A stretch of DNA of 64,000 nt, taken from IMG/VR virus record IMGVR_UViG_3300023198_000833, positions 1-64,000 of that record; one strand, 5' to 3'. Both the position numbers and the translations under genes were made by a program. The notes under the pieces are model-generated. The model made no database searches. It worked only from the letters and a program-made list of their open reading frames with translations, and was not told where the DNA came from. This DNA is from a virus. This document shows, piece after piece, positions 2,736-18,593 of this stretch (position 1 is the stretch's first letter; every line of letters starts with the position of its first letter).

Positions 2736-3578
2736 TCATCTGTTTGTCGCCTCGAAAAAGAAGTCAAATAATCTGTATAGAGCAGCCTTAACAAACGGAT
2801 AAGCGCCTTTCGATACGTCTTCAGGCAACTCATTGAAATGATACTGCCCACCTAACTCAACAGCCTGAGCAATGCCGCCCCATCGTTTCCATCGCTTACC
2901 GTTAATTACTGCATCTTCCCAGTCTGCAATATTTAATCCGTGCGTGCGAGCATAGGTAACATAGGTACGCGTTGCGATAACGCCGAGCTGCGGTGCAATA
3001 TTCCACGCTTGCAGATATTTCGCTGATTTCCAAAGGACCTCTCTATTGGTGTAATCGCTATTGTGACCTTTGAGTGGCAATCCCCAAGCGTGCATGTTTT
3101 CACATAGATCTTCATCGACAGTATTAACATTGTAACACGACCTGATTTTACAGCCGGTCGGGAATGATAGATAAGCGATTCTATCCACTGGTACTATATC
3201 GAGTAATCGATACATGTACTCAATATAATTTGGTACTGGGTCCTCACCTGTTCCAAGCTCCCATTTCATATTCGGATAATGATCTACACATTGTTTAATT
3301 AATTCGAGATCAGTAGTATGCAAATGCACATAGTCATACGGCAAATCCTCAATGTGTGCGGGGTCCTCGCCGCCCTTAAGAAAATGATCTTGAGCGATGA
3401 TTCTATTAGGCCCTACGAAATCTCGTAAGCTCTTCGGTGTGAATCCCGTATATCCACCCAGCGGATTAACTTGACTCCATGAACAAATAAATCCAATAGG
3501 TACTGGGTAATTTGTAGTCATCAAAACGATATCTTTTGAGTATGGGCTGACGTACAGCTGTGGCCAAATTGTATTCAT
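2736..3578 (-). CDS. hypothetical protein (280 aa)
   Basis: Long ORF with good coding look. No motif recognised. Confidence 0.35.
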   Translation of the reverse strand: MNTIWPQLYVSPYSKDIVLMTTNYPVPIGFICSWSQVNPLGGYTGFTPKSLRDFVGPNRIIAQDHFLKGGEDPAHIEDLPYDYVHLHTTDLELIKQCVDHYPNMKWELGTGEDPVPNYIEYMYRLLDIVPVDRIAYLSFPTGCKIRSCYNVNTVDEDLCENMHAWGLPLKGHNSDYTNREVLWKSAKYLQAWNIAPQLGVIATRTYVTYARTHGLNIADWEDAVINGKRWKRWGGIAQAVELGGQYHFNELPEDVSKGAYPFVKAALYRLFDFFFEATNR

Positions 3579-11168: not shown

Positions 11169-11335
11169 TTTGTTCTCCTTAAATTAAGATTAATAATTAC
11201 TTGAAGGCAAAGTCAATTTACGTTTTCGATTTATTTAGGTCATTAAGTTGAGCACTGACCAAAAGCGAACACACGAAACGGCGAGTTATGGAGGGAATAA
11301 ATCGAGATGTCGTAAGGAGGGAACTTTGCCTTCAA

Positions 11336-11407
11336 ATCAGCGGACAGGACTCGAACCTGCATCTTCGGACGAAAAATCCGACGCTCTGCCAATTGAGCAA
11401 CCGCTGA
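11336..11407 (-). tRNA. tRNA-Lys (anticodon UUU)
   Basis: Minus-strand cloverleaf: acceptor TCAGCGG/CCGCTGA, D-arm GCTC-AATTGGCA-GAGC, anticodon stem TCGGA/TCCGA with loop TTTTTCG, T-arm CAGG-TTCGAGT-CCTG. No encoded CCA. Confidence 0.7.
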
Positions 11408-11495
11408 CATAAGATTGTCGAATTGAGTGACGGCTAGACAGAGTTGCGTATCAGCTATAACGTATTCGTATCAATTCGACAACTGGGAGATAGTT

Positions 11496-11654
11496 ATGAT
11501 TCCGACGGGCTGGGATTTGTTCATAATTCAGCCCGTCGATAAAGGTAAGCTCTTTGTCCAGTTGGATTCTATATTTATTTGTATGGTATTTCACCTTCAG
11601 CAGCCCATGGCGCACCGTCCTTTCTTTAGACACGTATTATATCGAGCCAATTAA
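11496..11654 (+). CDS. small plus-strand protein (52 aa, MIPTGWDLF...)
   Basis: The only convincing plus-strand gene. SD GGGAGATAGTT-ATG matches the phage consensus initiation cassette. A 12-bp palindrome pair (TTGTCGAATTGA / TCAATTCGACAA, 11415-11482) lies upstream and a bidirectional terminator downstream. Confidence 0.3.
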   Translation: MIPTGWDLFIIQPVDKGKLFVQLDSIFICMVFHLQQPMAHRPFFRHVLYRAN

Positions 11655-11732
11655 CAAAGTCTCTCAAACATCATTTTAGAGGCCTCTATTTAATTATATA
11701 GCTGCGTTTTTAAGTGATAAAAAAGGCCACCC

Positions 11733-11754
11733 TAATGGGTGGCCTTGGTGCGGT
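11733..11754. terminator. bidirectional rho-independent terminator
   Basis: GGCCACCC-TAAT-GGGTGGCC hairpin flanked by A5 on one side and a T-rich run (GGTGCGGTTTATTTT) on the other. Confidence 0.55.
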
Positions 11755-11900: not shown

Positions 11901-12245
11901 TTAGCCATTTTCGGTTGCCTCCTTTAGTCTATTTAATTCGGTTAACTGTTCAGATAGTTTTTGAATCTTTTTAATTAATTTGTCGTGCTCTAACATTTTC
12001 AATTCTTTTTGGTGTCGTCTGTTTTGTTTCTTCAATTCTTCAATATGACTCGGAGCTTTTATATGTTCAGCAGTTGCTTCGAGTATTTTTTCCTCCGCTT
12101 CTTTAATTATGATTCGTTGCTCATCGATTTCTTCCTTTAACCATTCATCGGTTGAAGACTGAGAATAATCTTTGATTAAAGATCGATTGATTTTAATCAT
12201 TTCCTTGAGTCTTATAATCTTTTGCTTTATTTCACCGGGTTTCAT
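11901..12245 (-). CDS. coiled-coil protein (114 aa)
   Basis: Lys/Glu-rich heptad-like sequence. Confidence 0.4.
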   Translation of the reverse strand: MKPGEIKQKIIRLKEMIKINRSLIKDYSQSSTDEWLKEEIDEQRIIIKEAEEKILEATAEHIKAPSHIEELKKQNRRHQKELKMLEHDKLIKKIQKLSEQLTELNRLKEATENG

Positions 12246-12269
12246 TTCTATCTCCTATAAAAAATTTAT

Positions 12270-12299
12270 GGGGCAGCTGACATTAGCATCGACTGCCCC
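12270..12299 (-). terminator. rho-independent terminator (minus strand)
   Basis: GGGGCAG...CUGCCCC 7-bp stem followed on the minus strand by AUAAAUUUUUUAU. Immediately after the stop at 12306. Confidence 0.5.
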
Positions 12300-12305
12300 A
12301 TTGTG

Positions 12306-12713
12306 TTAGTCCTCGACGGTTGCCAATAACTCGTCGACGTTGATGCCCTGAGCGGTGAGCTGCTCTTTGAGTTCGGACATCTTTTCCTGCAGTTTGATAA
12401 GACGCTTCGCACGTCCACGGTCTGCGGCCGACCCAAGTTTCTTCGCCTCTTCCGCTTGGTCACGGAACAAGCTTCCCTTGTAGTCCATTTCGGCGGCCCG
12501 GAATTCGTAAAAGAGATAGTCGGCTGAGAAATCTCTTTTCTTCAGAGCACGATGTAACTTGAAATCGAATCCTTCGGGAACAGCGTCCTTGAAAGGATAA
12601 AGCTCTGGGTCTTTGTTTCCGATACCCGAAAAATCAACGCGACCAGTCTTCTTAGGTTCTGGCTTTGTGATAGTGGGTTTTGCCGTCGCGGCCTGTCCTG
12701 GTTTCTTTGCCAT
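12306..12713 (-). CDS. small basic protein, paralogue family member 1 (PxGFDFKxH ... KLGS ... QLTxQGIxV)
   Basis: Clear paralogy with 13248..13631. Confidence 0.45.
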   Translation of the reverse strand: MAKKPGQAATAKPTITKPEPKKTGRVDFSGIGNKDPELYPFKDAVPEGFDFKLHRALKKRDFSADYLFYEFRAAEMDYKGSLFRDQAEEAKKLGSAADRGRAKRLIKLQEKMSELKEQLTAQGINVDELLATVED

Positions 12714-12734
12714 CCATGGGCTCCTTAATACTGC

Positions 12735-13157
12735 TTACTTCGATTGACATGCGGATAGTTTCTTTTGAACTTTCAAAAGCTCCGCGATTAACTTAACTTC
12801 TTCAGGTTGAGTTTCTTTAGTCACAATCTTGTAATGATGATATCGACCTCTTTCAGCGCCGCATACTATATTGTATAAATATCGCCATAAGTCACGGTGT
12901 CCAGACCGCACTATAAGTCGGTCTGCAAACGTATGGCAAATCTCATGACAAATGGTTTCGTCATACTTACCTTGCTCCTGCATGACATAATTGAGATTGT
13001 AATTACACATCAGTCGGTTTGCTTGACCAGCTGTCGAGCTGACTTTTGTTGTCCATTTGATTTTCGGTAACCTCTTATCAAAATTCTTATGAATATAAAC
13101 GCGTTCTAATAAAAGGTTCCACCAAAACTCATGTCTTTCTTTTACCCAATTAATCAT
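12735..13157 (-). CDS. SprT-like zinc metallopeptidase domain protein
   Basis: HEICHTF (HExxH) motif. The listed ORF start (13187) lies inside the conserved 5' leader. The ATG after the SD ATAGGAGATAGTAca is near 13157. Confidence 0.45.
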   Translation of the reverse strand: MINWVKERHEFWWNLLLERVYIHKNFDKRLPKIKWTTKVSSTAGQANRLMCNYNLNYVMQEQGKYDETICHEICHTFADRLIVRSGHRDLWRYLYNIVCGAERGRYHHYKIVTKETQPEEVKLIAELLKVQKKLSACQSK

Positions 13158-13174
13158 TGTACTATCTCCTATAA

Positions 13175-13245
13175 TTGTATGTCTCATCAGGCGGTGGCTT
13201 ACAAGACCATTCCGCGACGCCGGAATCCGTTCCGACGTTTCGACA
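13175..13245 (-). ncRNA. type II hammerhead ribozyme (copy F)
   Basis: Minus-strand UGUC-GAAA-[stem III CGUCGGAA/UUCCGGCG]-U-C^-[stem I GCGG-AA-UGG..CCA-CCGC]-CUGAUGA-GACA. Loop I UUGUA pairs with the 3' flank UACAA. Confidence 0.8.
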
Positions 13246-13247
13246 AA

Positions 13248-13631
13248 TTACGAACTGCTTTCCGTAGCAGCTTCGAGCAGAGCTTTAACATCAATGCCCT
13301 GTTCAGTAAGCTGTGCTTTGAGTTCTTCCATCTTTTCATTGAGTCGAATCATTTGACGCTTCTTAGCGCGTTCTGCAGGTGAGCCGAGTTTGCGGCATTC
13401 TTCAGCCTTGCTCCTGAACAATTTAGCTTTCCAATCCAAGCCAGCGGCGACGTGATCGTAGTACATCGCATCGTCTTTGAAGTTTTTCTTTTTCAAGACT
13501 TTGTGAACCTTGAAATCGAATCCATCAGGAATCATTACTTCGTACGGTTCTTCTGAAATTTTGAACGCTGTACGAGCGACGACCTTCTTTTCTGTTTCGA
13601 CGACTTTTGTTTTTGTGTTTGCTTTTGCCAT
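13248..13631 (-). CDS. small basic protein, paralogue family member 2
   Basis: PDGFDFKVHKVLKKKNF ... KLGS ... QLTEQGIDV, parallel to 12306..12713. Confidence 0.45.
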   Translation of the reverse strand: MAKANTKTKVVETEKKVVARTAFKISEEPYEVMIPDGFDFKVHKVLKKKNFKDDAMYYDHVAAGLDWKAKLFRSKAEECRKLGSPAERAKKRQMIRLNEKMEELKAQLTEQGIDVKALLEAATESSS

Positions 13632-13665
13632 TGTACTATCTCCTAGATTAAAAGTTGTAAGACTA

Positions 13666-13722
13666 TCTGAGCCTCATCAGTACCGCCTATTAACGGCAGA
13701 CGCCCGTGAGGGCGTTTCGGCT
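13666..13722 (-). ncRNA. type II hammerhead ribozyme (copy G)
   Basis: AGCC-GAAA-[CGCCC UCAC GGGCG]-U-C^-[UGCCGU..GGCGGUA]-CUGAUGA-GGCU. Stem II (AGCC/GGCU) is a compensatory variant. The upstream stop codon UAA overlaps the stem II strand. Confidence 0.75.
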
Positions 13723-14003
13723 TATTCATAATAGTGATTCGATTGGTCTACTGATTGCTCAATGTATACTCGCTCCCATTTCTCAGCGGTAGCCGGACCG
13801 TATTTTCCGTCTTCTTCAATTGGATTCTCTGGCTCAAATTCGTTAAGCATTTTTTGAATGTCCATCAAGCTTGGAATCAATTCTGGTTCAGGTTTCGGAA
13901 TGCTTCTTATTTGAGCCAGCGCCACAAGGACGACCATAAGCCCAAATAAAACAGTGATTAACATTACTACTGCCTTCAATCTTTCTTGGTTTCCTCTTGA
14001 CAT
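13722..14003 (-). CDS. small membrane protein (93 aa)
   Basis: TM helix AVVMLITVLFGLMVVLVALA. Confidence 0.4.
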   Translation of the reverse strand: MSRGNQERLKAVVMLITVLFGLMVVLVALAQIRSIPKPEPELIPSLMDIQKMLNEFEPENPIEEDGKYGPATAEKWERVYIEQSVDQSNHYYE

Positions 14004-14019
14004 TTCAATCTCCTATAAC

Positions 14020-14090
14020 ATGCTTGTCTCATCAGGCGGTGGGTGGCAATCCCATTCCGCGACGCCGGAATCCGTTCCGACGTTTCGACA
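14020..14090 (-). ncRNA. type II hammerhead ribozyme (copy E)
   Basis: Same architecture as copy F (UGUC/GACA stem II) with a different loop I (AUUGCCA). Confidence 0.75.
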
Positions 14091-14092
14091 AA

Positions 14093-14404
14093 TTACGAAC
14101 TAAGCTTGTCCAGCTTATCTTGAACTGCCTTGAGTTGAGCTTGTAACTTTTCTTTACGAGCGGCGATCCGTTCGGCCTTCTTAGCCTCGCGTTCGCCCTT
14201 AGTTGCTTCGTGCTGAATCGCCTTTGTTAAGTTGGCTGCTATTTTATCCAGCCGTTCAGCAATTCGGCTTAGTTGAGGACCGAAGCGCTCAATTTGTTCA
14301 GGCGGTAAAGTTAATGTGTTCACGCCTTCAGTAAGGCTGTTAATACCGACTACTGCTTCCGGTGTTACGATTGCAACCTTTTTCGTTTTCTTTGACTTTG
14401 CCAT
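14093..14404 (-). CDS. small Lys/Ala-rich coiled-coil protein (103 aa)
   Basis: ORF with the consensus SD. Confidence 0.4.
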   Translation of the reverse strand: MAKSKKTKKVAIVTPEAVVGINSLTEGVNTLTLPPEQIERFGPQLSRIAERLDKIAANLTKAIQHEATKGEREAKKAERIAARKEKLQAQLKAVQDKLDKLSS

Positions 14405-14438
14405 TTTACTATCTCCTATATAAGAGGTTTAAAAAATT

Positions 14439-14533
14439 TTGACCTGTCTCTTCAGACGGTGGTGGTCAACCCATCCGTGACCTACCCGCTTTGATTATTT
14501 GATAAGGAGAGTTGAACGGGTAGGTTTCGACTA
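14439..14533 (-). ncRNA. type II hammerhead ribozyme (copy D, long loop III)
   Basis: AGUC-GAAA-[CCUACCCG ...28 nt... CGGGUAGG]-U-C^-[ACGG..CCGU]-CUGAAGA-GACA. Loop I UUGACC pairs with the 3' flank GGUCAA (6 bp). The stop UAG of the upstream gene overlaps AGUC. Confidence 0.7.
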
Positions 14534-14968
14534 ACTGATAATAGTTTTGGCCCATGCGATGTCACTCATAAGACCGCTTGACGGATTTTCTATTTCGTCC
14601 GGCATATCACCGTCTTCATAGGCTTTAGTCGATTTATAAATATCACATCCAAAATTAATATTTGCGTAACCGAAAACGTAAACCTTTTCTTTCTCAACTA
14701 CAATATATTCTGGACATGTTCGGCCTTCACAAACGCCGCCGATAATTTCGTTAATGATTGTCAATTTTTGACTTTCATCAGTAATCGAATCATCAACTTT
14801 TTTCTCAATCAATATATCGACAAGAATCAACGGTTCATCTTCAAGAATCTCATCTGTTATATAAAACTTTTGTCCTCGGTATTCAACGACTTCCTTAATT
14901 CCATAGATGCCACCAAATACAGTATGTTCGCCGATTTTAATATCAACTGTTTTAACGTACATAATCAT
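14531..14968 (-). CDS. hypothetical protein (145 aa)
   Basis: ORF with the consensus SD. Confidence 0.4.
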   Translation of the reverse strand: MIMYVKTVDIKIGEHTVFGGIYGIKEVVEYRGQKFYITDEILEDEPLILVDILIEKKVDDSITDESQKLTIINEIIGGVCEGRTCPEYIVVEKEKVYVFGYANINFGCDIYKSTKAYEDGDMPDEIENPSSGLMSDIAWAKTIIS

Positions 14969-14993
14969 TTTACTATCTCCTATAATAAATTGT

Positions 14994-15058
14994 TTGGCAG
15001 TCTCCTCAGCAGCGGAATGCCAATCCGCTGGACGCGAGCAGTTGCCCGCGTTTCGACT
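14994..15058 (-). ncRNA. type II hammerhead ribozyme (copy B)
   Basis: AGUC-GAAA-[CGCGGGC..GCUCGCG]-U-C^-[CAGCGGA UUGGCAU UCCGCUG]-CUGAGGA-GACU-GCCAA. N7 is G, which the core allows. Loop I UUGGC pairs with the flank GCCAA. Confidence 0.8.
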
Positions 15059-15261
15059 TAAATATTTTTGATGTGTCTGATATGTTTACAATCTCTTCTC
15101 GGCATGTGTCGAGTCCAACCCATGCATGAGCATTGAAATTTTCCGCTGGCTAATTCAACAACTGTGTAGGTTCGACCGCTATCACTTTTAACTCGACGAC
15201 GTTCGACAACGTTATTGCTGACACAATAATCTGTATCTGGGCTTGCTTTTCTTGAAGTCAT
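15058..15261 (-). CDS. SWIM-type zinc-finger protein (67 aa)
   Basis: CSCMGW...CKH (CxC-x9-CxH). Confidence 0.4.
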   Translation of the reverse strand: MTSRKASPDTDYCVSNNVVERRRVKSDSGRTYTVVELASGKFQCSCMGWTRHMPRRDCKHIRHIKNI

Positions 15262-15285
15262 TTTAAATCTCCTATAATAAAATGT

Positions 15286-15346
15286 TTGGCAGTCTCATCA
15301 GCAACGGAATGCCAATCCGCTGGACCCGCCGGAGCGGGTTTCGACT
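15286..15346 (-). ncRNA. type II hammerhead ribozyme (copy A)
   Basis: AGUC-GAAA-[CCCGC UCCG GCGGG]-U-C^-[CAGCGGA UUGGCAU UCCGUUG]-CUGAUGA-GACU-GCCAA. Confidence 0.8.
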
Positions 15347-15728
15347 ATTTGCATTTCTTAATTGTTTTCCATAAACTGTTATCATGCCACCATTTTGAAA
15401 TCATCAATTGTAGTGCTTTCTTTTTACCGATGTACCTGATTATTGGGAACCCGCCGCCGGGTCCACAATCGTTAATCGTTTTTGTTTTGATGTTTGCTTT
15501 TGCAAGCCACTCAACAAATTCTTCCCAGTCAGGGTCACAAGTATCAAGGTCGGCAAACCATTTGGTATGTTCTCGAATACTTTTCTGCGTTTCTTTAATT
15601 TCCATTTTCATTAGGTCAGTATCGAATCCTAATGAACAAGCAATCTCATCTGCTTGATCTTTTGCAGCTTTCAAATTCTTGTCTTCAATTTCGTACGTTG
15701 CGGTGAATGTTAATTTGAATGTTGCCAT
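15345..15728 (-). CDS. hypothetical protein (about 127 aa)
   Basis: The listed start 15734 is TTG. The ATG with the SD AGGAGAUUGAAA sits at 15728. Confidence 0.4.
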   Translation of the reverse strand: MATFKLTFTATYEIEDKNLKAAKDQADEIACSLGFDTDLMKMEIKETQKSIREHTKWFADLDTCDPDWEEFVEWLAKANIKTKTINDCGPGGGFPIIRYIGKKKALQLMISKWWHDNSLWKTIKKCK

Positions 15729-15752
15729 TTTCAATCTCCTATGAAAAATGTT

Positions 15753-15821
15753 TAGGCCAGTCTCATCAGTACGGGTTGCCTATGTCCGTAGAACCGCGAG
15801 CCGAGCTCGCGGGTTTCGACT
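15753..15821 (-). ncRNA. type II hammerhead ribozyme (copy C)
   Basis: AGUC-GAAA-[CCGCGAGC..GCUCGCGG]-UU-C^-[UACGG ACAUAGGCAA CCGUA]-CUGAUGA-GACU. Loop I UAGGC pairs with the flank GCCUA. Confidence 0.75.
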
Positions 15822-16044
15822 TTAGGAGATATGACGTTGTGCATAGTTTTGGTCGACCATCATCAGCACCAAAATTTTTGCTTACCACTGCATCTGAATT
15901 TTTAATGGACTTATTTAAGTACGTCTCGCCATTCCATTCGATTTTCGCGTGGTCTTAAGCTACAGTCCCGAGGCTTTCGCCTGTCCAACCGTTCCGTTCC
16001 AGCTCCGTATTATTAACTTATCAAATAATCAATTACAATTACAA

Positions 16045-16072
16045 TTATACCAAGTAGTTCAATATAGTCAAT
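16045..16072 (-). promoter_or_regulatory. near-consensus sigma70 promoter (TTGACT-N16-TATAAT) reading leftward into the ribozyme/small-gene block
   Basis: Minus-strand TTGACTATATTGAACTACTTGGTATAAT, embedded in an AT-rich stretch. The overlapping 62-aa ORF 16013..16201 is probably spurious. Confidence 0.5.
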
Positions 16073-16231
16073 ATAAAAATAAAGTTTTTTCATATTTTTT
16101 TCATATTTTTTTTGGCTGTTGTAAGTAGTTGAAAACAAACAACTTACAGATGTCATTTCAGCCTCTACAAGCATCATACGAGCCTTCTTACCTTTCGGCA
16201 TACAATCAATCGAGCTATTCCTTAAAGTTTG

Positions 16232-18148
16232 TTAGAGCTTAATCTCACCGTCATCGCTGGAGGCTATCGACCAATTCTTATCTGACATTCCGCACGAAAC
16301 TCGAATAGGTACACGGAAGTTTACGGAGGTCGATTCAAACATAGTTGCAATTTGTTTTAAGACACGTTTATCTTTTGCAACTTCAATCGGAGCATACATA
16401 ACTGTTTCATCATGTACACTTGCACAAAATTTAATACCGTGATCTTTCATCCACTTAAAATATCGTGGCGCTGTTGCAACCGTTCGTTCTTTAATTAAAT
16501 CAGCAGCACTCGATTGTATGATCGTATTGAAAGCTCGGTAAGCAGCTTTAGTAGGCAGCTGCCGTTGACGACCATAAGCGTTAAAAACGTAACCTCGAGC
16601 AATTAAGTTATTCGCTGCTTGCTGTGTAACGCGTTTTAAACCTGGCAAAGTATCGTGATAGGTTTGGTAAACCTTTTCTCCTCGCTTAAGACAAAGTAAG
16701 TCAAATAGTTGACCTCGTTGACTGGGTTTGATTTTTTCTTGCTTTATAAATTCTTCAACTGTAGCTGACAAGTCGCTTACTAATTCCATGTTAGCCGCAA
16801 GCATCGATACGACTTTCTTCTTGCCGCCGCCGTACCCGATACAAAAGTTTACGTTTTTAGCGGGCTTACGCGGAATGCCGCACATCTCTGCTACCCACGT
16901 ATGAAAGTCCGTATCAGCGTCTTCTTGATAAGCAGCAATTGCAGCGACGTCTTTAATGTAGTGAATGATAAGTCGAAATTCAACTTGACTATAATCATAT
17001 CGAATAATAACATATCCTTTGGGCGGATGAATTAATTCTTTAGCGGCAGGTGACAATTGCTGAGAGTTAGGTCGACGACAAGACATACGTCCAGTCCTAA
17101 CAATCTGGTTGTAGTCGGGATGCATCAGGCCGTTAACATTATGTTCTTTATACGGGGCTATGAAAAAGTTATGCAAGGTATGCAGCTTACGATAGGTTTG
17201 TATTTTTTTAACGATAGTTGTAAGCTCTTCTGATTCTTGGACAAACGGGTGTGCTCGGTAGGAAGTTAAAGTATCTTTATCGAAAGATGGATCACCTTTA
17301 TCAGTATATCCTAAAACTGGAAGACCGTACTTATTACATAGTACTTCAAAACAATCTGCATTCGTGTGTGGTCGAATTGGAATTCCAGTTAAATGATCAA
17401 GCTCCTCTTCAAGTTTTGATAAATGATATAATGTCGTTAATTGTTTTTTGTCTAATTCGAGTGGGTCAACATATAAGCCGGTTACTTCCATATCGTATAA
17501 GACCGGAGTAAGTTTTGTCTCTGTCTCCCAGACTCCAAGCGTTTGCTCATGTCGTCGTCTTAATATATGTCGGTGCAATTTTCTATTACTAAGAACATCT
17601 TGACAACCGTACTCTCCAATTATATCGCCCGGCACATCACCGTAGTCTTTACTATTGCATCCAGTTAAGTATGCATTCAATCGATTCTCAACTTTTGAGA
17701 TATCTTCTTCAAGCCATTCTAACGATAATGCACTTAAGCTATATTCATATCGATCTGACTGTACTATTTTTGAAAGAGCTAACGTGTCAATCAATTTACA
17801 ATTAAAATCGATTCCATCTTGAGCAATAAAATGAGCATCGAATTTTATGTTATGGTTCACCCATTCTTCACAGCTATTAATAATTTCATCAATCCAATTT
17901 AAAACAGGTTGCAGCGGCACATTCCATTTCTCATGATTACATCTAATAGGTACGTACCAAGCGGGTTGATGTTTATCCGCAGTTATGCAAATGCCAGCAA
18001 CACGGTGACCGTGATATGGACGAAAAGCCTTAACCTTTCGATCAAAGGACGTAGTCTCCATATCACAGTACAAGTGTGTTGCGTTTTTAAGATTAGGCAA
18101 TTCGCTAACATCTTGAACTAATCGCCCACCGTTTTCAAAATTAAGCAT
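16232..18148 (-). CDS. family A DNA polymerase with 3'-5' exonuclease domain (T7-like)
   Basis: Exo I LYCDMETTS. Motif A RYDYSQVEFR. Motif B RKPAKNVNFCIGYGGG. Motif C SVHDET. Confidence 0.85.
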   Translation of the reverse strand: MLNFENGGRLVQDVSELPNLKNATHLYCDMETTSFDRKVKAFRPYHGHRVAGICITADKHQPAWYVPIRCNHEKWNVPLQPVLNWIDEIINSCEEWVNHNIKFDAHFIAQDGIDFNCKLIDTLALSKIVQSDRYEYSLSALSLEWLEEDISKVENRLNAYLTGCNSKDYGDVPGDIIGEYGCQDVLSNRKLHRHILRRRHEQTLGVWETETKLTPVLYDMEVTGLYVDPLELDKKQLTTLYHLSKLEEELDHLTGIPIRPHTNADCFEVLCNKYGLPVLGYTDKGDPSFDKDTLTSYRAHPFVQESEELTTIVKKIQTYRKLHTLHNFFIAPYKEHNVNGLMHPDYNQIVRTGRMSCRRPNSQQLSPAAKELIHPPKGYVIIRYDYSQVEFRLIIHYIKDVAAIAAYQEDADTDFHTWVAEMCGIPRKPAKNVNFCIGYGGGKKKVVSMLAANMELVSDLSATVEEFIKQEKIKPSQRGQLFDLLCLKRGEKVYQTYHDTLPGLKRVTQQAANNLIARGYVFNAYGRQRQLPTKAAYRAFNTIIQSSAADLIKERTVATAPRYFKWMKDHGIKFCASVHDETVMYAPIEVAKDKRVLKQIATMFESTSVNFRVPIRVSCGMSDKNWSIASSDDGEIKL

Positions 18149-18593
18149 TATTTAAATCTCGTATCAATCCTTGAATATAACTCTCATGCACGATGCATAC
18201 ACCCGCTTGTTTAATTAAATCTTCTCCGAAGCCATCTCGATAATCTTCACTCCAAACGACACCTATAATTTTACCGCAGTTCAACATCACGCTGGCACAA
18301 TGGTGGCAAGGTTTTCTCGAGGTCCATAAAATACTGGGTTTAGCCAAATCGTTATTGAATTTAGCGATTGCATTTACTTCGGCGTGCGCACATCCACAAG
18401 CGGCGACATTATCAAATTTACAATTATCATTTGGTAGGCCACGCGGCGGACCGTTATATCCGATAGCATATATCGCCGAACAATCCGTTGGAAAAATTAT
18501 ACATGCGACTTGAAGTCGACCGCATGTCGATAATCCAATTAAATGCTTACCCATATCGATAAGCGTTTTAATCTTTTTCTCCTGACGCTTCAT
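18141..18593 (-). CDS. dCMP deaminase (CMP/dCMP deaminase zinc-binding family)
   Basis: CAHAEVNAI and PCHHCASVM (the HxE ... PCxxC signature). Confidence 0.65.
   Translation of the reverse strand: MKRQEKKIKTLIDMGKHLIGLSTCGRLQVACIIFPTDCSAIYAIGYNGPPRGLPNDNCKFDNVAACGCAHAEVNAIAKFNNDLAKPSILWTSRKPCHHCASVMLNCGKIIGVVWSEDYRDGFGEDLIKQAGVCIVHESYIQGLIRDLNNA

Follow-up and report, generated by a model that had tools for sequence, protein, structure and literature searches.

The 64,000-nucleotide (nt) stretch of viral DNA analyzed here (IMG/VR record IMGVR_UViG_3300023198_000833, positions 1 to 64,000; hereafter the window) carries on its minus strand an operon of ~4.3 kb (~16037 to 11723) encoding ten small proteins, g1 to g10. 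Sequence analysis confirmed that positions 13180-15821 on this strand hold seven genuine, complete type II hammerhead ribozymes (HH1 to HH7), which occupy the first seven junctions of the operon. The array is bracketed by a strong sigma-70-type promoter (16044-16071, minus strand; TTGACT, a 16-nt spacer, TG, and TATAAT, with 11 of 12 consensus matches and an extended -10) and by an intrinsic terminator at the end of the operon (11723-11746, minus strand), and we therefore treat it as one transcription unit.

We regard the hammerheads as real because all seven have intact three-helix cores, are recovered by a covariance model, and show compensatory pair changes in related phages. The conserved core (CUGANGA...GAAA, the A15.1-U16.1 pair, and C17 at the cleavage site) was present in 7/7, with position 7 being U, G, or A, each of which is allowed. 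Likewise, all seven form three helices, in which loops cap stems I and III while stem II is open and admits the 5' and 3' ends; stem lengths were 3-6 base pairs (bp) for stem II, 6-11 bp for stem III, and 4-8 bp for stem I. A loose core pattern returned 6 minus-strand matches within 13183-15818 against 0.04 expected by chance, and a regular expression allowing a longer gap added the seventh.

The Rfam model RF02276 (gathering threshold, 37 bits) placed HH2 above its threshold at 41.2 bits and HH6 and HH1 below it at 34.1 and 25.9 bits, and did not report HH3, HH4, HH5, or HH7 even at E ≤ 5. Because Rfam recovered only three of the seven, we built our own descriptor and covariance model. The descriptor, which required CUGANGA, GAAA, the A15.1-U16.1 pair, H at position 17, and three helices, parsed exactly seven elements in the 64-kb window, and its false positives numbered 0-3 per 1.17 Mb of shuffled sequence versus 179 matches in real loci. 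The covariance model (R1), seeded with HH1 to HH3, found all seven hammerheads and nothing else in the 64 kb; the seeds scored 77-90 bits and the nonseed HH4 to HH7 scored 23-37 bits (E = 2e-8 to 3e-4). Across 31 distinct sequences from the window and its relatives, in an alignment that had been fitted to the model's own structure, 94% of pair cells held standard pairs and 16 of 18 pairs showed changes on both sides. None of 500 shuffles matched the observed score, and slid-register controls were 30-50% paired. A MAFFT alignment of all seven hammerheads left the stems out of register and was not used in the modelling.

The seven elements are given here in the order of transcription, all on the minus strand. 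HH1 (15759-15821; cleavage 3' of C15791; 76.9 bits as a seed) has a 5-bp pseudoknot and a C-U mismatch at 15.2/16.2, and no open reading frame (ORF) lies upstream of it. HH2 (15290-15347; cleavage 3' of 15323) combines a UAGUC/GACUG stem II with a UUGGCA/UGCCAA pseudoknot, and the g1 stop codon, UAG, falls wholly within its 5-bp stem IIa, 3 nt being shared if the U-G pair is counted. HH3 (14999-15058; cleavage 3' of 15031) has the core CUGAGGA and shares 1 nt, the last A of the g2 UAA stop, in stem IIa. In HH4 (14446-14531; cleavage 3' of 14479; 23.4 bits, E = 3e-4) the core is CUGAAGA, stem II is 3 bp long, the pseudoknot is UUGACC/GGUCAA, and 1 nt is again shared, in this case the G of the g3 UAG stop; its stem III loop is unusually long. 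HH5 (14023-14092; cleavage 3' of 14061; 27.9 bits) has a 6-bp stem II, which the g4 stop abuts at stem IIa with a gap of 0 nt, and no evident pseudoknot. HH6 (13670-13722; cleavage 3' of 13699; 36.9 bits) has an AGCC/GGCU stem II, a weak pseudoknot, and 1 nt of stem IIa shared with the last A of the g5 UAA stop. Finally, HH7 (13180-13245; cleavage 3' of 13216; 25.2 bits) has a UUGUA/UACAA pseudoknot of about 5 bp (7 by the count of the scan) and a g6 stop that ends 2 nt upstream of stem IIa.

An initial annotation of the sequence had proposed that the upstream stop codon overlaps the stem II strand at four or more junctions, and this was correct, with 1-3 nt shared at HH2, HH3, HH4, and HH6. 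The distance from the stop to G12 was 2-6 nt at 6/6 internal junctions. The close packing described in the same annotation, within about 100 nt, was also borne out, since the stop, ribozyme, spacer, Shine-Dalgarno (SD) site, and AUG together span 83-126 nt. The pseudoknot that it placed at the junctions, which joins loop I to the 3' tail, was seen in HH1 to HH4 and HH7, where it comprises 5-7 bp, but in HH5 and HH6 it amounts to only 4 bp and is doubtful. The next AUG was found about 17-34 nt after the pseudoknot strand and 19-41 nt after stem IIb, a longer spacing than the 10-25 nt first given.

The first seven genes of the operon, all on the minus strand, each follow one of the hammerheads and a start-site cassette. 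They are g1 (127 amino acids [aa]; 15345-15728; cassette CAUAGGAGAU at 15743-15734; stop UAG at 15347-15345), g2 (67 aa, with a CxC...CxH motif; 15058-15261; cassette at 15276-15267; stop UAA at 15060-15058), g3 (145 aa; 14531-14968; cassette at 14984-14975; stop UAG at 14533-14531), g4 (103 aa; 14093-14404; cassette at 14420-14411; stop UAA at 14095-14093), g5 (93 aa, with a membrane helix predicted by reading of the sequence; 13722-14003; cassette at 14017-14008; stop UAA at 13724-13722), g6 (127 aa, a paralogue of g8; 13248-13631; cassette UCUAGGAGAU at 13647-13638; stop UAA at 13250-13248), and g7 (140 aa; 12735-13157; cassette at 13173-13164). A program-made list of ORFs places the start of g7 at 13187 instead of 13157, using an in-frame AUG (13185-13187) that lies within the CUGAUGA core of HH7.

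The remaining three minus-strand genes lack hammerheads. The g7/g8 junction carries neither a ribozyme nor the common cassette, and g8 (135 aa, a paralogue of g6; 12306-12713) has a different SD site, UAAGGAGC. The exact cassette, UAUAGGAGAU at 12259-12250, precedes g9 (114 aa; start at 12245; 11901-12259 including the cassette), and a plain hairpin (~12292-12263) precedes that cassette. The last gene, g10 (58 aa; 11908-11732), ends with a UAG stop (11732-11734) at the junction of the loop and 3' arm of the terminator hairpin. Searches of Pfam and PHROG with g1 to g10 recognized only an SprT-like domain in g7 (PF10263, E = 6e-7) and one PHROG of unknown function in g1 (phrog_5922, E = 7e-5). 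Among the genes of these arrays, the g6/g8 family shows the strongest conservation, and one or two copies of it occur in the related loci L026/L038, L028, L003, L014/L037, and L235; it has no Pfam or PHROG match, and its database homologues carry no annotation or name.

All ORFs of at least 133 aa in the window are encoded on the minus strand, and the set of genes resembles that of a phage. The operon is placed between a gene for a family A-type DNA polymerase (16232-18148, minus strand) and a tRNA-Lys(UUU) gene (11335-11408, minus strand) just 3' of the operon terminator. Other phage-type proteins around the array include a primase-type protein, a C5 methylase, a thymidylate synthase, a dCMP deaminase, a 5'-3' exonuclease, and a DNA ligase-like protein. 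The most likely explanation is that an accessory-gene operon was inserted in the DNA-replication module of an uncultured phage. BLAST of positions 12000-18200 against GenBank phages gave no match; relatives were present in IMG/VR and Logan assemblies, where the polymerases of L037/L014, L038/L026, and L039 were 65-69% identical to that of the window and L028, L003, and L235 were further relatives. These relatives carry hammerhead arrays at the same place with the same cassette, and homologues were observed in them for g4 (L038), g6/g8, and g9 only. A scan of bacterial and archaeal genomes for the hammerhead core together with the cassette returned 49 loci with one weak model match (22 bits), and offered no clue to the host.

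Six genes have an exact start-site cassette, (U)AUAGGAGAU followed after 6-8 nt by AUG, and two others have it with one mismatch. The six exact and two one-mismatch copies of TATAGGAGAT all lie within 12250-15743, and across the whole window this sequence has 16 matches at ≤1 mismatch versus 4.9 expected; strong start sites of other genes in the window are of the AAGGAGA type. The near-invariance of the SD cassette noted in the initial annotation thus holds for eight genes, but the cassette is not part of the ribozyme unit, as g9 and nine junctions of the relative L037 (13022-18794, start site UAUAGGAGAUAGUACAAUG) have it with no hammerhead. From these hammerhead-free junctions the cassette appears to be a module separate from the ribozyme, and its sequence is particular to this phage family. 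Plain hairpins precede some of the L037 junctions and a repeated GTGTCACTGGTTAAC motif precedes two of them; the covariance model and Rfam found no other ribozymes there. The same cassette had also been proposed to precede a lone plus-strand gene at 11496, where only a partial match (GGGAGATAGTTATG) was seen; the 52-aa ORF in question (11496-11654) has no homologue in any fetched locus and is probably not a gene.

At five of the six internal junctions the start site was predicted to be mostly unpaired in the uncleaved RNA as well as in the cleaved product, so that cleavage changes its accessibility little. For the spacer of HH4, CCUCUUAUAUAGGAG (within 14404-14531, minus strand), folding predicts a small local hairpin in which the g4 SD site is hidden (probability of being unpaired, 0.03) before and after cleavage alike.

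Comparison of the junctions with one another points to exchange between them. HH5 and HH7 are 94% identical over 77 nt (14025-14101 versus 13180-13256), a block that takes in the stop and the three codons before it, from gene ends that are otherwise unrelated, and differ in loop I and the pseudoknot partners. HH2 and HH3 share a block of 62 nt with 94% identity, bounded by the start site and the cleavage site (15267-15328 versus 14975-15036), and differ in stem III. Additionally, the junction between the SprT-like gene and the g8 homologue has a hammerhead and cassette in L235 (1897-1970) and neither in the window (12714-12734), which indicates that hammerheads are gained or lost at fixed gene junctions. 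Judged from these comparisons, the hammerhead appears to be an optional element that junctions gain, lose, and exchange by recombination, and the region to be accessory and hyperplastic, with ribozyme and start-site modules being copied and swapped.

This mosaic structure raises the question of whether the repeated stop-hammerhead-spacer-start units serve mainly as short homologous boundaries for duplicating, swapping, and capturing accessory genes, ribozyme activity being secondary or merely tolerated. Such a role would account for near-identical blocks at nonadjacent junctions with breakpoints inside ribozymes and in last or first codons, and it fits the paralogy of g6 and g8, the variable gene content among relatives, in which only g4, g6/g8, and g9 have homologues, and the presence of a hammerhead at an orthologous junction in one phage and not in another. 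Genes flanked by clustered hammerheads have also been found not to be constant (PMC3088659). However, all seven catalytic cores are intact, and the abundant compensatory changes in the stems imply selection on the RNA fold and not only on DNA homology. The cassette alone would also serve homology-driven shuffling equally well, as in L037, and we consider a primarily recombinational role quite unlikely.

Upstream of HH1, the operon begins with an untranslated leader (15822-16037, minus strand, from the inferred transcription start) of ~215 nt to HH1 and ~245 nt to its cleavage site, in which we found no ORF and no Rfam match. A leader box, TTGATAAGTTAATAATACG (16006-16024, minus strand), is conserved among relatives; as TTGAWAAGTNAATAATAYG it lies ~20-45 nt 3' of the -10 in five related phages, and L026, L028, L003, and L014 have both the box and a promoter resembling that of the operon at the same position. 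That the box is a repeated promoter was ruled out, as the window has one strong copy. Further stretches of the leader are conserved as well, for example, GGTGCTGAT.A.TGGTCGACC, which is common to the window and L003.

At its 3' end, 2 nt 5' of HH1 stem IIa, the leader carries an anti-SD element, AUAUCUCCUA (15823-15832, minus strand), that is complementary to the g1 SD site. The anti-SD/SD duplex has an energy of -12.8 kcal/mol, and the minimum free energy structure includes this helix (z = -3.2). With the native hammerhead enforced, the probability that GGAG is unpaired was 0.00 in the window, 0.00 in L026, 0.01 in L028, and 0.49 in L014. Once the 3' product is free, the SD site was unpaired with a probability of 0.39-0.97 across the window and relatives and 0.64-0.82 for HH1. 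The anti-SD element is kept at the first hammerhead of L026/L038 (~2471-2487 in L026), L028 (939-955), L003, and L014/L037 while its flanks diverge, and the extension that it has in L026 and in L028 corresponds to the first start site of the phage concerned. A scan of viral contigs for TCTCCNAAARTCGAAAC gave mostly chance matches, and only the known relatives L026 and L028 pair it with a hammerhead. We rejected the anti-SD as a general feature of first-in-array hammerheads: the mean duplex energy was -6.9 kcal/mol versus -5.1 kcal/mol for others (p = 0.02) in a weak test, and this lies within the permuted-partner range (mean, -6.4 kcal/mol), which makes the element specific to this phage family. 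The anti-SD may act as a clamp on stem II at a place where the upstream RNA is not cleared by a ribosome or, alternatively, may repress g1 translation for as long as the leader has not been displaced or degraded.

The position of the stop codon was examined further in a survey of viral contigs containing the pattern GTCGAAAC-N28-58-CTGATGAGAC (loci L040-L159). This pattern is blind to ORFs and start sites, and the sample it selects is not representative of all type II hammerheads. The descriptor parsed 176 hammerheads in the survey, 152 of which had an upstream ORF of at least 50 codons. Among these 152, the stop and G12 were separated by 2, 3, 4, 5, and 6 nt in 37, 24, 21, 16, and 14 cases, respectively, so that 112 (74%) fell at 2-6 nt; relative to the helix edge, an overlap of one nt was commonest (43 cases), exact abutment was next (26), and larger overlaps were seen in 5. 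The predicted start was 20-39 nt after G10.1 in 119 of the 165 surveyed hammerheads with a predicted downstream start (72%). A pseudoknot of at least 5 bp was present in 57% of the surveyed hammerheads versus 28% with permuted tails. Two unrelated viral contigs, L085 (8126-11264) and L086 (2154-5021), carry arrays of 8-9 type II hammerheads, each array with its own near-uniform start site (AAUGGAGAYU in L085 and UUGGAGAAC in L086). In this pattern-selected sample, phage type II hammerheads therefore usually show the order stop, hammerhead, pseudoknot, spacer, SD site, AUG, which is not peculiar to the window.

Given the known footprint of the ribosome, one that terminates with such a stop in its A site would cover stem IIa, G12-A14, and the start of stem III. 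Because this footprint takes in strands of the ribozyme, a terminating ribosome and the folded ribozyme cannot coexist. On such grounds the initial annotation had suggested that cleavage could depend on translation of the upstream gene, and selection may be imagined to have placed the stop in stem II so that upstream ribosome traffic controls cutting and couples the separation, stability, or translation of cistrons. Several points from the survey favor this proposal: the stop lies 2-6 nt from the core in about three-quarters of the cases, overlaps pile up at one nt (43 cases versus 5 larger), and UAG is over-represented (57/152). Moreover, there is no protective spacer on the 5' side of the ribozyme, whereas one of 17-34 nt is kept on the 3' side, and the ribosome-bound and folded states would be mutually exclusive. 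Against this, the ribozyme lies wholly 3' of the stop and folds with no ribosome, so that translation could at most delay cleavage transiently, an effect on its duty cycle. The offset of the stop also varies, from 2 to 8 nt and more, with no fixed register, and HH1 has no upstream ORF at all.

Compaction provides another account of the same feature. Of the junctions in the window, about half overlap or are spaced by ≤3 nt, and the g10 stop lies within the terminator hairpin, as does that of its homologue in the relative L235 (~3025-3050). In this generally compact genome a stop can thus overlap an RNA structure downstream of it even where no ribozyme is involved, and the stop flush with stem II is best explained by tight packing, in which untranslated spacer was squeezed out. 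We judge selection for translational gating to be unlikely; regulation of cleavage by upstream translation is unproven, and coupling by re-initiation across ~90 nt is not supported. A broader version would join the flush stop to the leader. In it, the stop would be a selected coupling device, the ribosome gating both folding and product release so that each cistron is severed and stabilized in step with upstream translation, while the anti-SD would clamp HH1, keep the first start site masked for as long as the leader is neither displaced nor degraded, and perhaps act on the other seven identical start sites. This combined scheme we hold to be doubtful.

Hammerheads cut 3' of C17 and leave a 2',3'-cyclic phosphate and a 5'-OH. 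With this chemistry and seven intact cores, we think it probable that the ribozymes constitutively cut the polycistronic RNA into stable single-gene mRNAs and that the flush stop is mainly a product of compaction. Each ribozyme would cut 3' of its C17, the products would separate quickly, stem II being only 3-6 bp long, and each cistron would become its own mRNA. Such an mRNA would open with a 5'-OH and the hairpin of stem I with its pseudoknot, continue through a spacer rich in U and A, and reach a strong start site (UAUAGGAGAU, then 6-8 nt and AUG); at its 3' end it would carry the stop, ≤6 nt, GAA, the G+C-rich stem III hairpin, a one-nt overhang, and the 2',3'-cyclic phosphate. By analogy with RNase III processing in T7 and with the RiboJ insulator, these ends would be expected to resist 5'-end-dependent and 3'-exonucleolytic decay and to insulate the start sites, and genes of mixed origin could thereby be expressed uniformly and independently. 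A terminating ribosome would melt stems II and III, so that translation would delay cleavage transiently and would not trigger it. Clustered prophage hammerheads flank genes and cleave polycistronic constructs of ~2 kb in vitro, and processing of long phage transcripts has been proposed for them (PMC3088659); RiboJ raises the expression of insulated genes (PMC6206723). The function of bacterial and phage hammerheads is still called open (PMC6765202).

Several observations weigh against constitutive processing with a stop placed by compaction. UAG makes up 37.5% of the hammerhead-adjacent stops in the survey, compared with 18% of stops in the window, and UAG-UC, the maximum possible overlap, in which the G is stem II nucleotide 11.3, accounts for 37 cases (24% of those with an upstream ORF); the frequency of UAG-UC could reflect selection for coupling. 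The C-U mismatch of HH1 adjoins the cleavage site, and HH5 and HH6 have no convincing pseudoknot, so that some copies may perhaps be slow. Finally, cleavage is predicted to leave the leader fragment of HH1 attached (cofold, -39.5 kcal/mol; separate products, -25.3 kcal/mol; a difference of ~14 kcal/mol), which makes a simple cut-and-release switch at HH1 doubtful.

The predicted ends also bear on a different fate for the cistrons, in which the ends of an excised cistron reassemble a chimeric hammerhead through the GUC/GAC shared by their stems II, or are joined by RtcB, to yield circular single-gene mRNAs. The idea has been raised before for clustered hammerheads, where spliced or circular products were sought and none were found (PMC3088659). 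Here, the GUC/GAC core is common to six of the seven stem II helices, and known hammerhead chemistry leaves suitable ends; yet a stem II of 3-4 bp would be weak across a loop of ~400 nt, and among the ten neighboring proteins that were scanned there was a DNA ligase-like protein and no RNA ligase. We consider circularization highly improbable.

The locus is an unusually complete example of the clustered phage hammerheads already published, and the flush-stop rule and the leader anti-SD are what make it worth following up. As in the clustered prophage hammerheads (RF02276, Hammerhead_II), for which processing of polycistronic RNA was proposed, the ribozymes have a type II topology and a loop I/3'-tail pseudoknot, and several copies in the same orientation flank variable small phage genes (PMC3088659). 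In the window, several same-orientation copies flank single genes in one transcription unit, which places the array among clustered phage hammerheads. Seven consecutive junctions are involved here, in contrast to the triple or tandem arrangements tested earlier, and the flush stop, uniform cassette, and leader anti-SD are not mentioned in that report, in which "stop codon" and "Shine-Dalgarno" each occur 0 times (PMC3088659). The length of the array is not unique, given the 8-9 copies in L085 and L086.

Parallels to other systems are partial. In the T7 early region, as reportedly described by Dunn and Studier, RNase III sites cut a long transcript into single-gene mRNAs with a protective 3' hairpin. 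The two systems share structured intercistronic RNAs and single-gene mRNAs that keep a 3' hairpin, but in T7 the cut is made by host RNase III, whereas here the RNA is predicted to cut itself and to leave 5'-OH and 2',3'-cyclic-phosphate ends. A long duplex of the RNase III type was not noted at these junctions by eye, in an inspection that included no dedicated test. Ribosome-binding sites controlled by aptazymes are said to have been engineered by Ogawa and Maeda (2008) and by Wieland and Hartig (2008). In these designs and in RiboJ (PMC6206723), a hammerhead directly 5' of a ribosome-binding site removes the upstream context and standardizes the 5' untranslated region (UTR), much as is proposed here, and the predicted pairing of the anti-SD strand with the SD across the ribozyme at HH1 further resembles the engineered designs. 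The elements of the window differ in being natural, in their type II topology, and in a cut 5' of stem I; unlike the engineered switches, the HH1 complex after cleavage is also predicted to be too stable (~-14 kcal/mol) for spontaneous release.

The PeSL elements of T4-type phages, reportedly termed "mobile regulatory cassettes" by Arbiol et al. in 2010, resemble the present units in being short repeated regulatory sequences on either side of small accessory ORFs, in a hyperplastic region where the copies bear signs of having recombined with one another. A PeSL consists of a promoter and a stem-loop with no ribozyme, whereas a single promoter drives the array described here. Type I hammerheads between the genes of eukaryotic RNA viruses likewise fill a short UTR, with cleavage a few to tens of nt before the next ORF; an internal ribosome entry site-like role has been proposed there, in contrast to the SD-type start of this DNA phage.

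The purpose of bacterial and phage hammerheads has been in question since 2011 (PMC3088659, PMC6765202), and this locus offers a clean natural test bed, with seven ribozymes in one operon that has defined ORF boundaries, one promoter, and one terminator, and with hammerhead-free junctions that have the same start site available for internal comparison. For most of the pattern-selected sample, the survey gives the mRNA-processing hypothesis a precise anatomy: a stop flush against the ribozyme, and the next start 20-40 nt beyond it. If the units act as natural insulators, they may provide usable parts for synthetic operons. If coupling and the leader clamp both proved true, the phage would possess a natural counterpart of engineered ribozyme-controlled ribosome-binding sites, and phage hammerheads would gain a concrete function.

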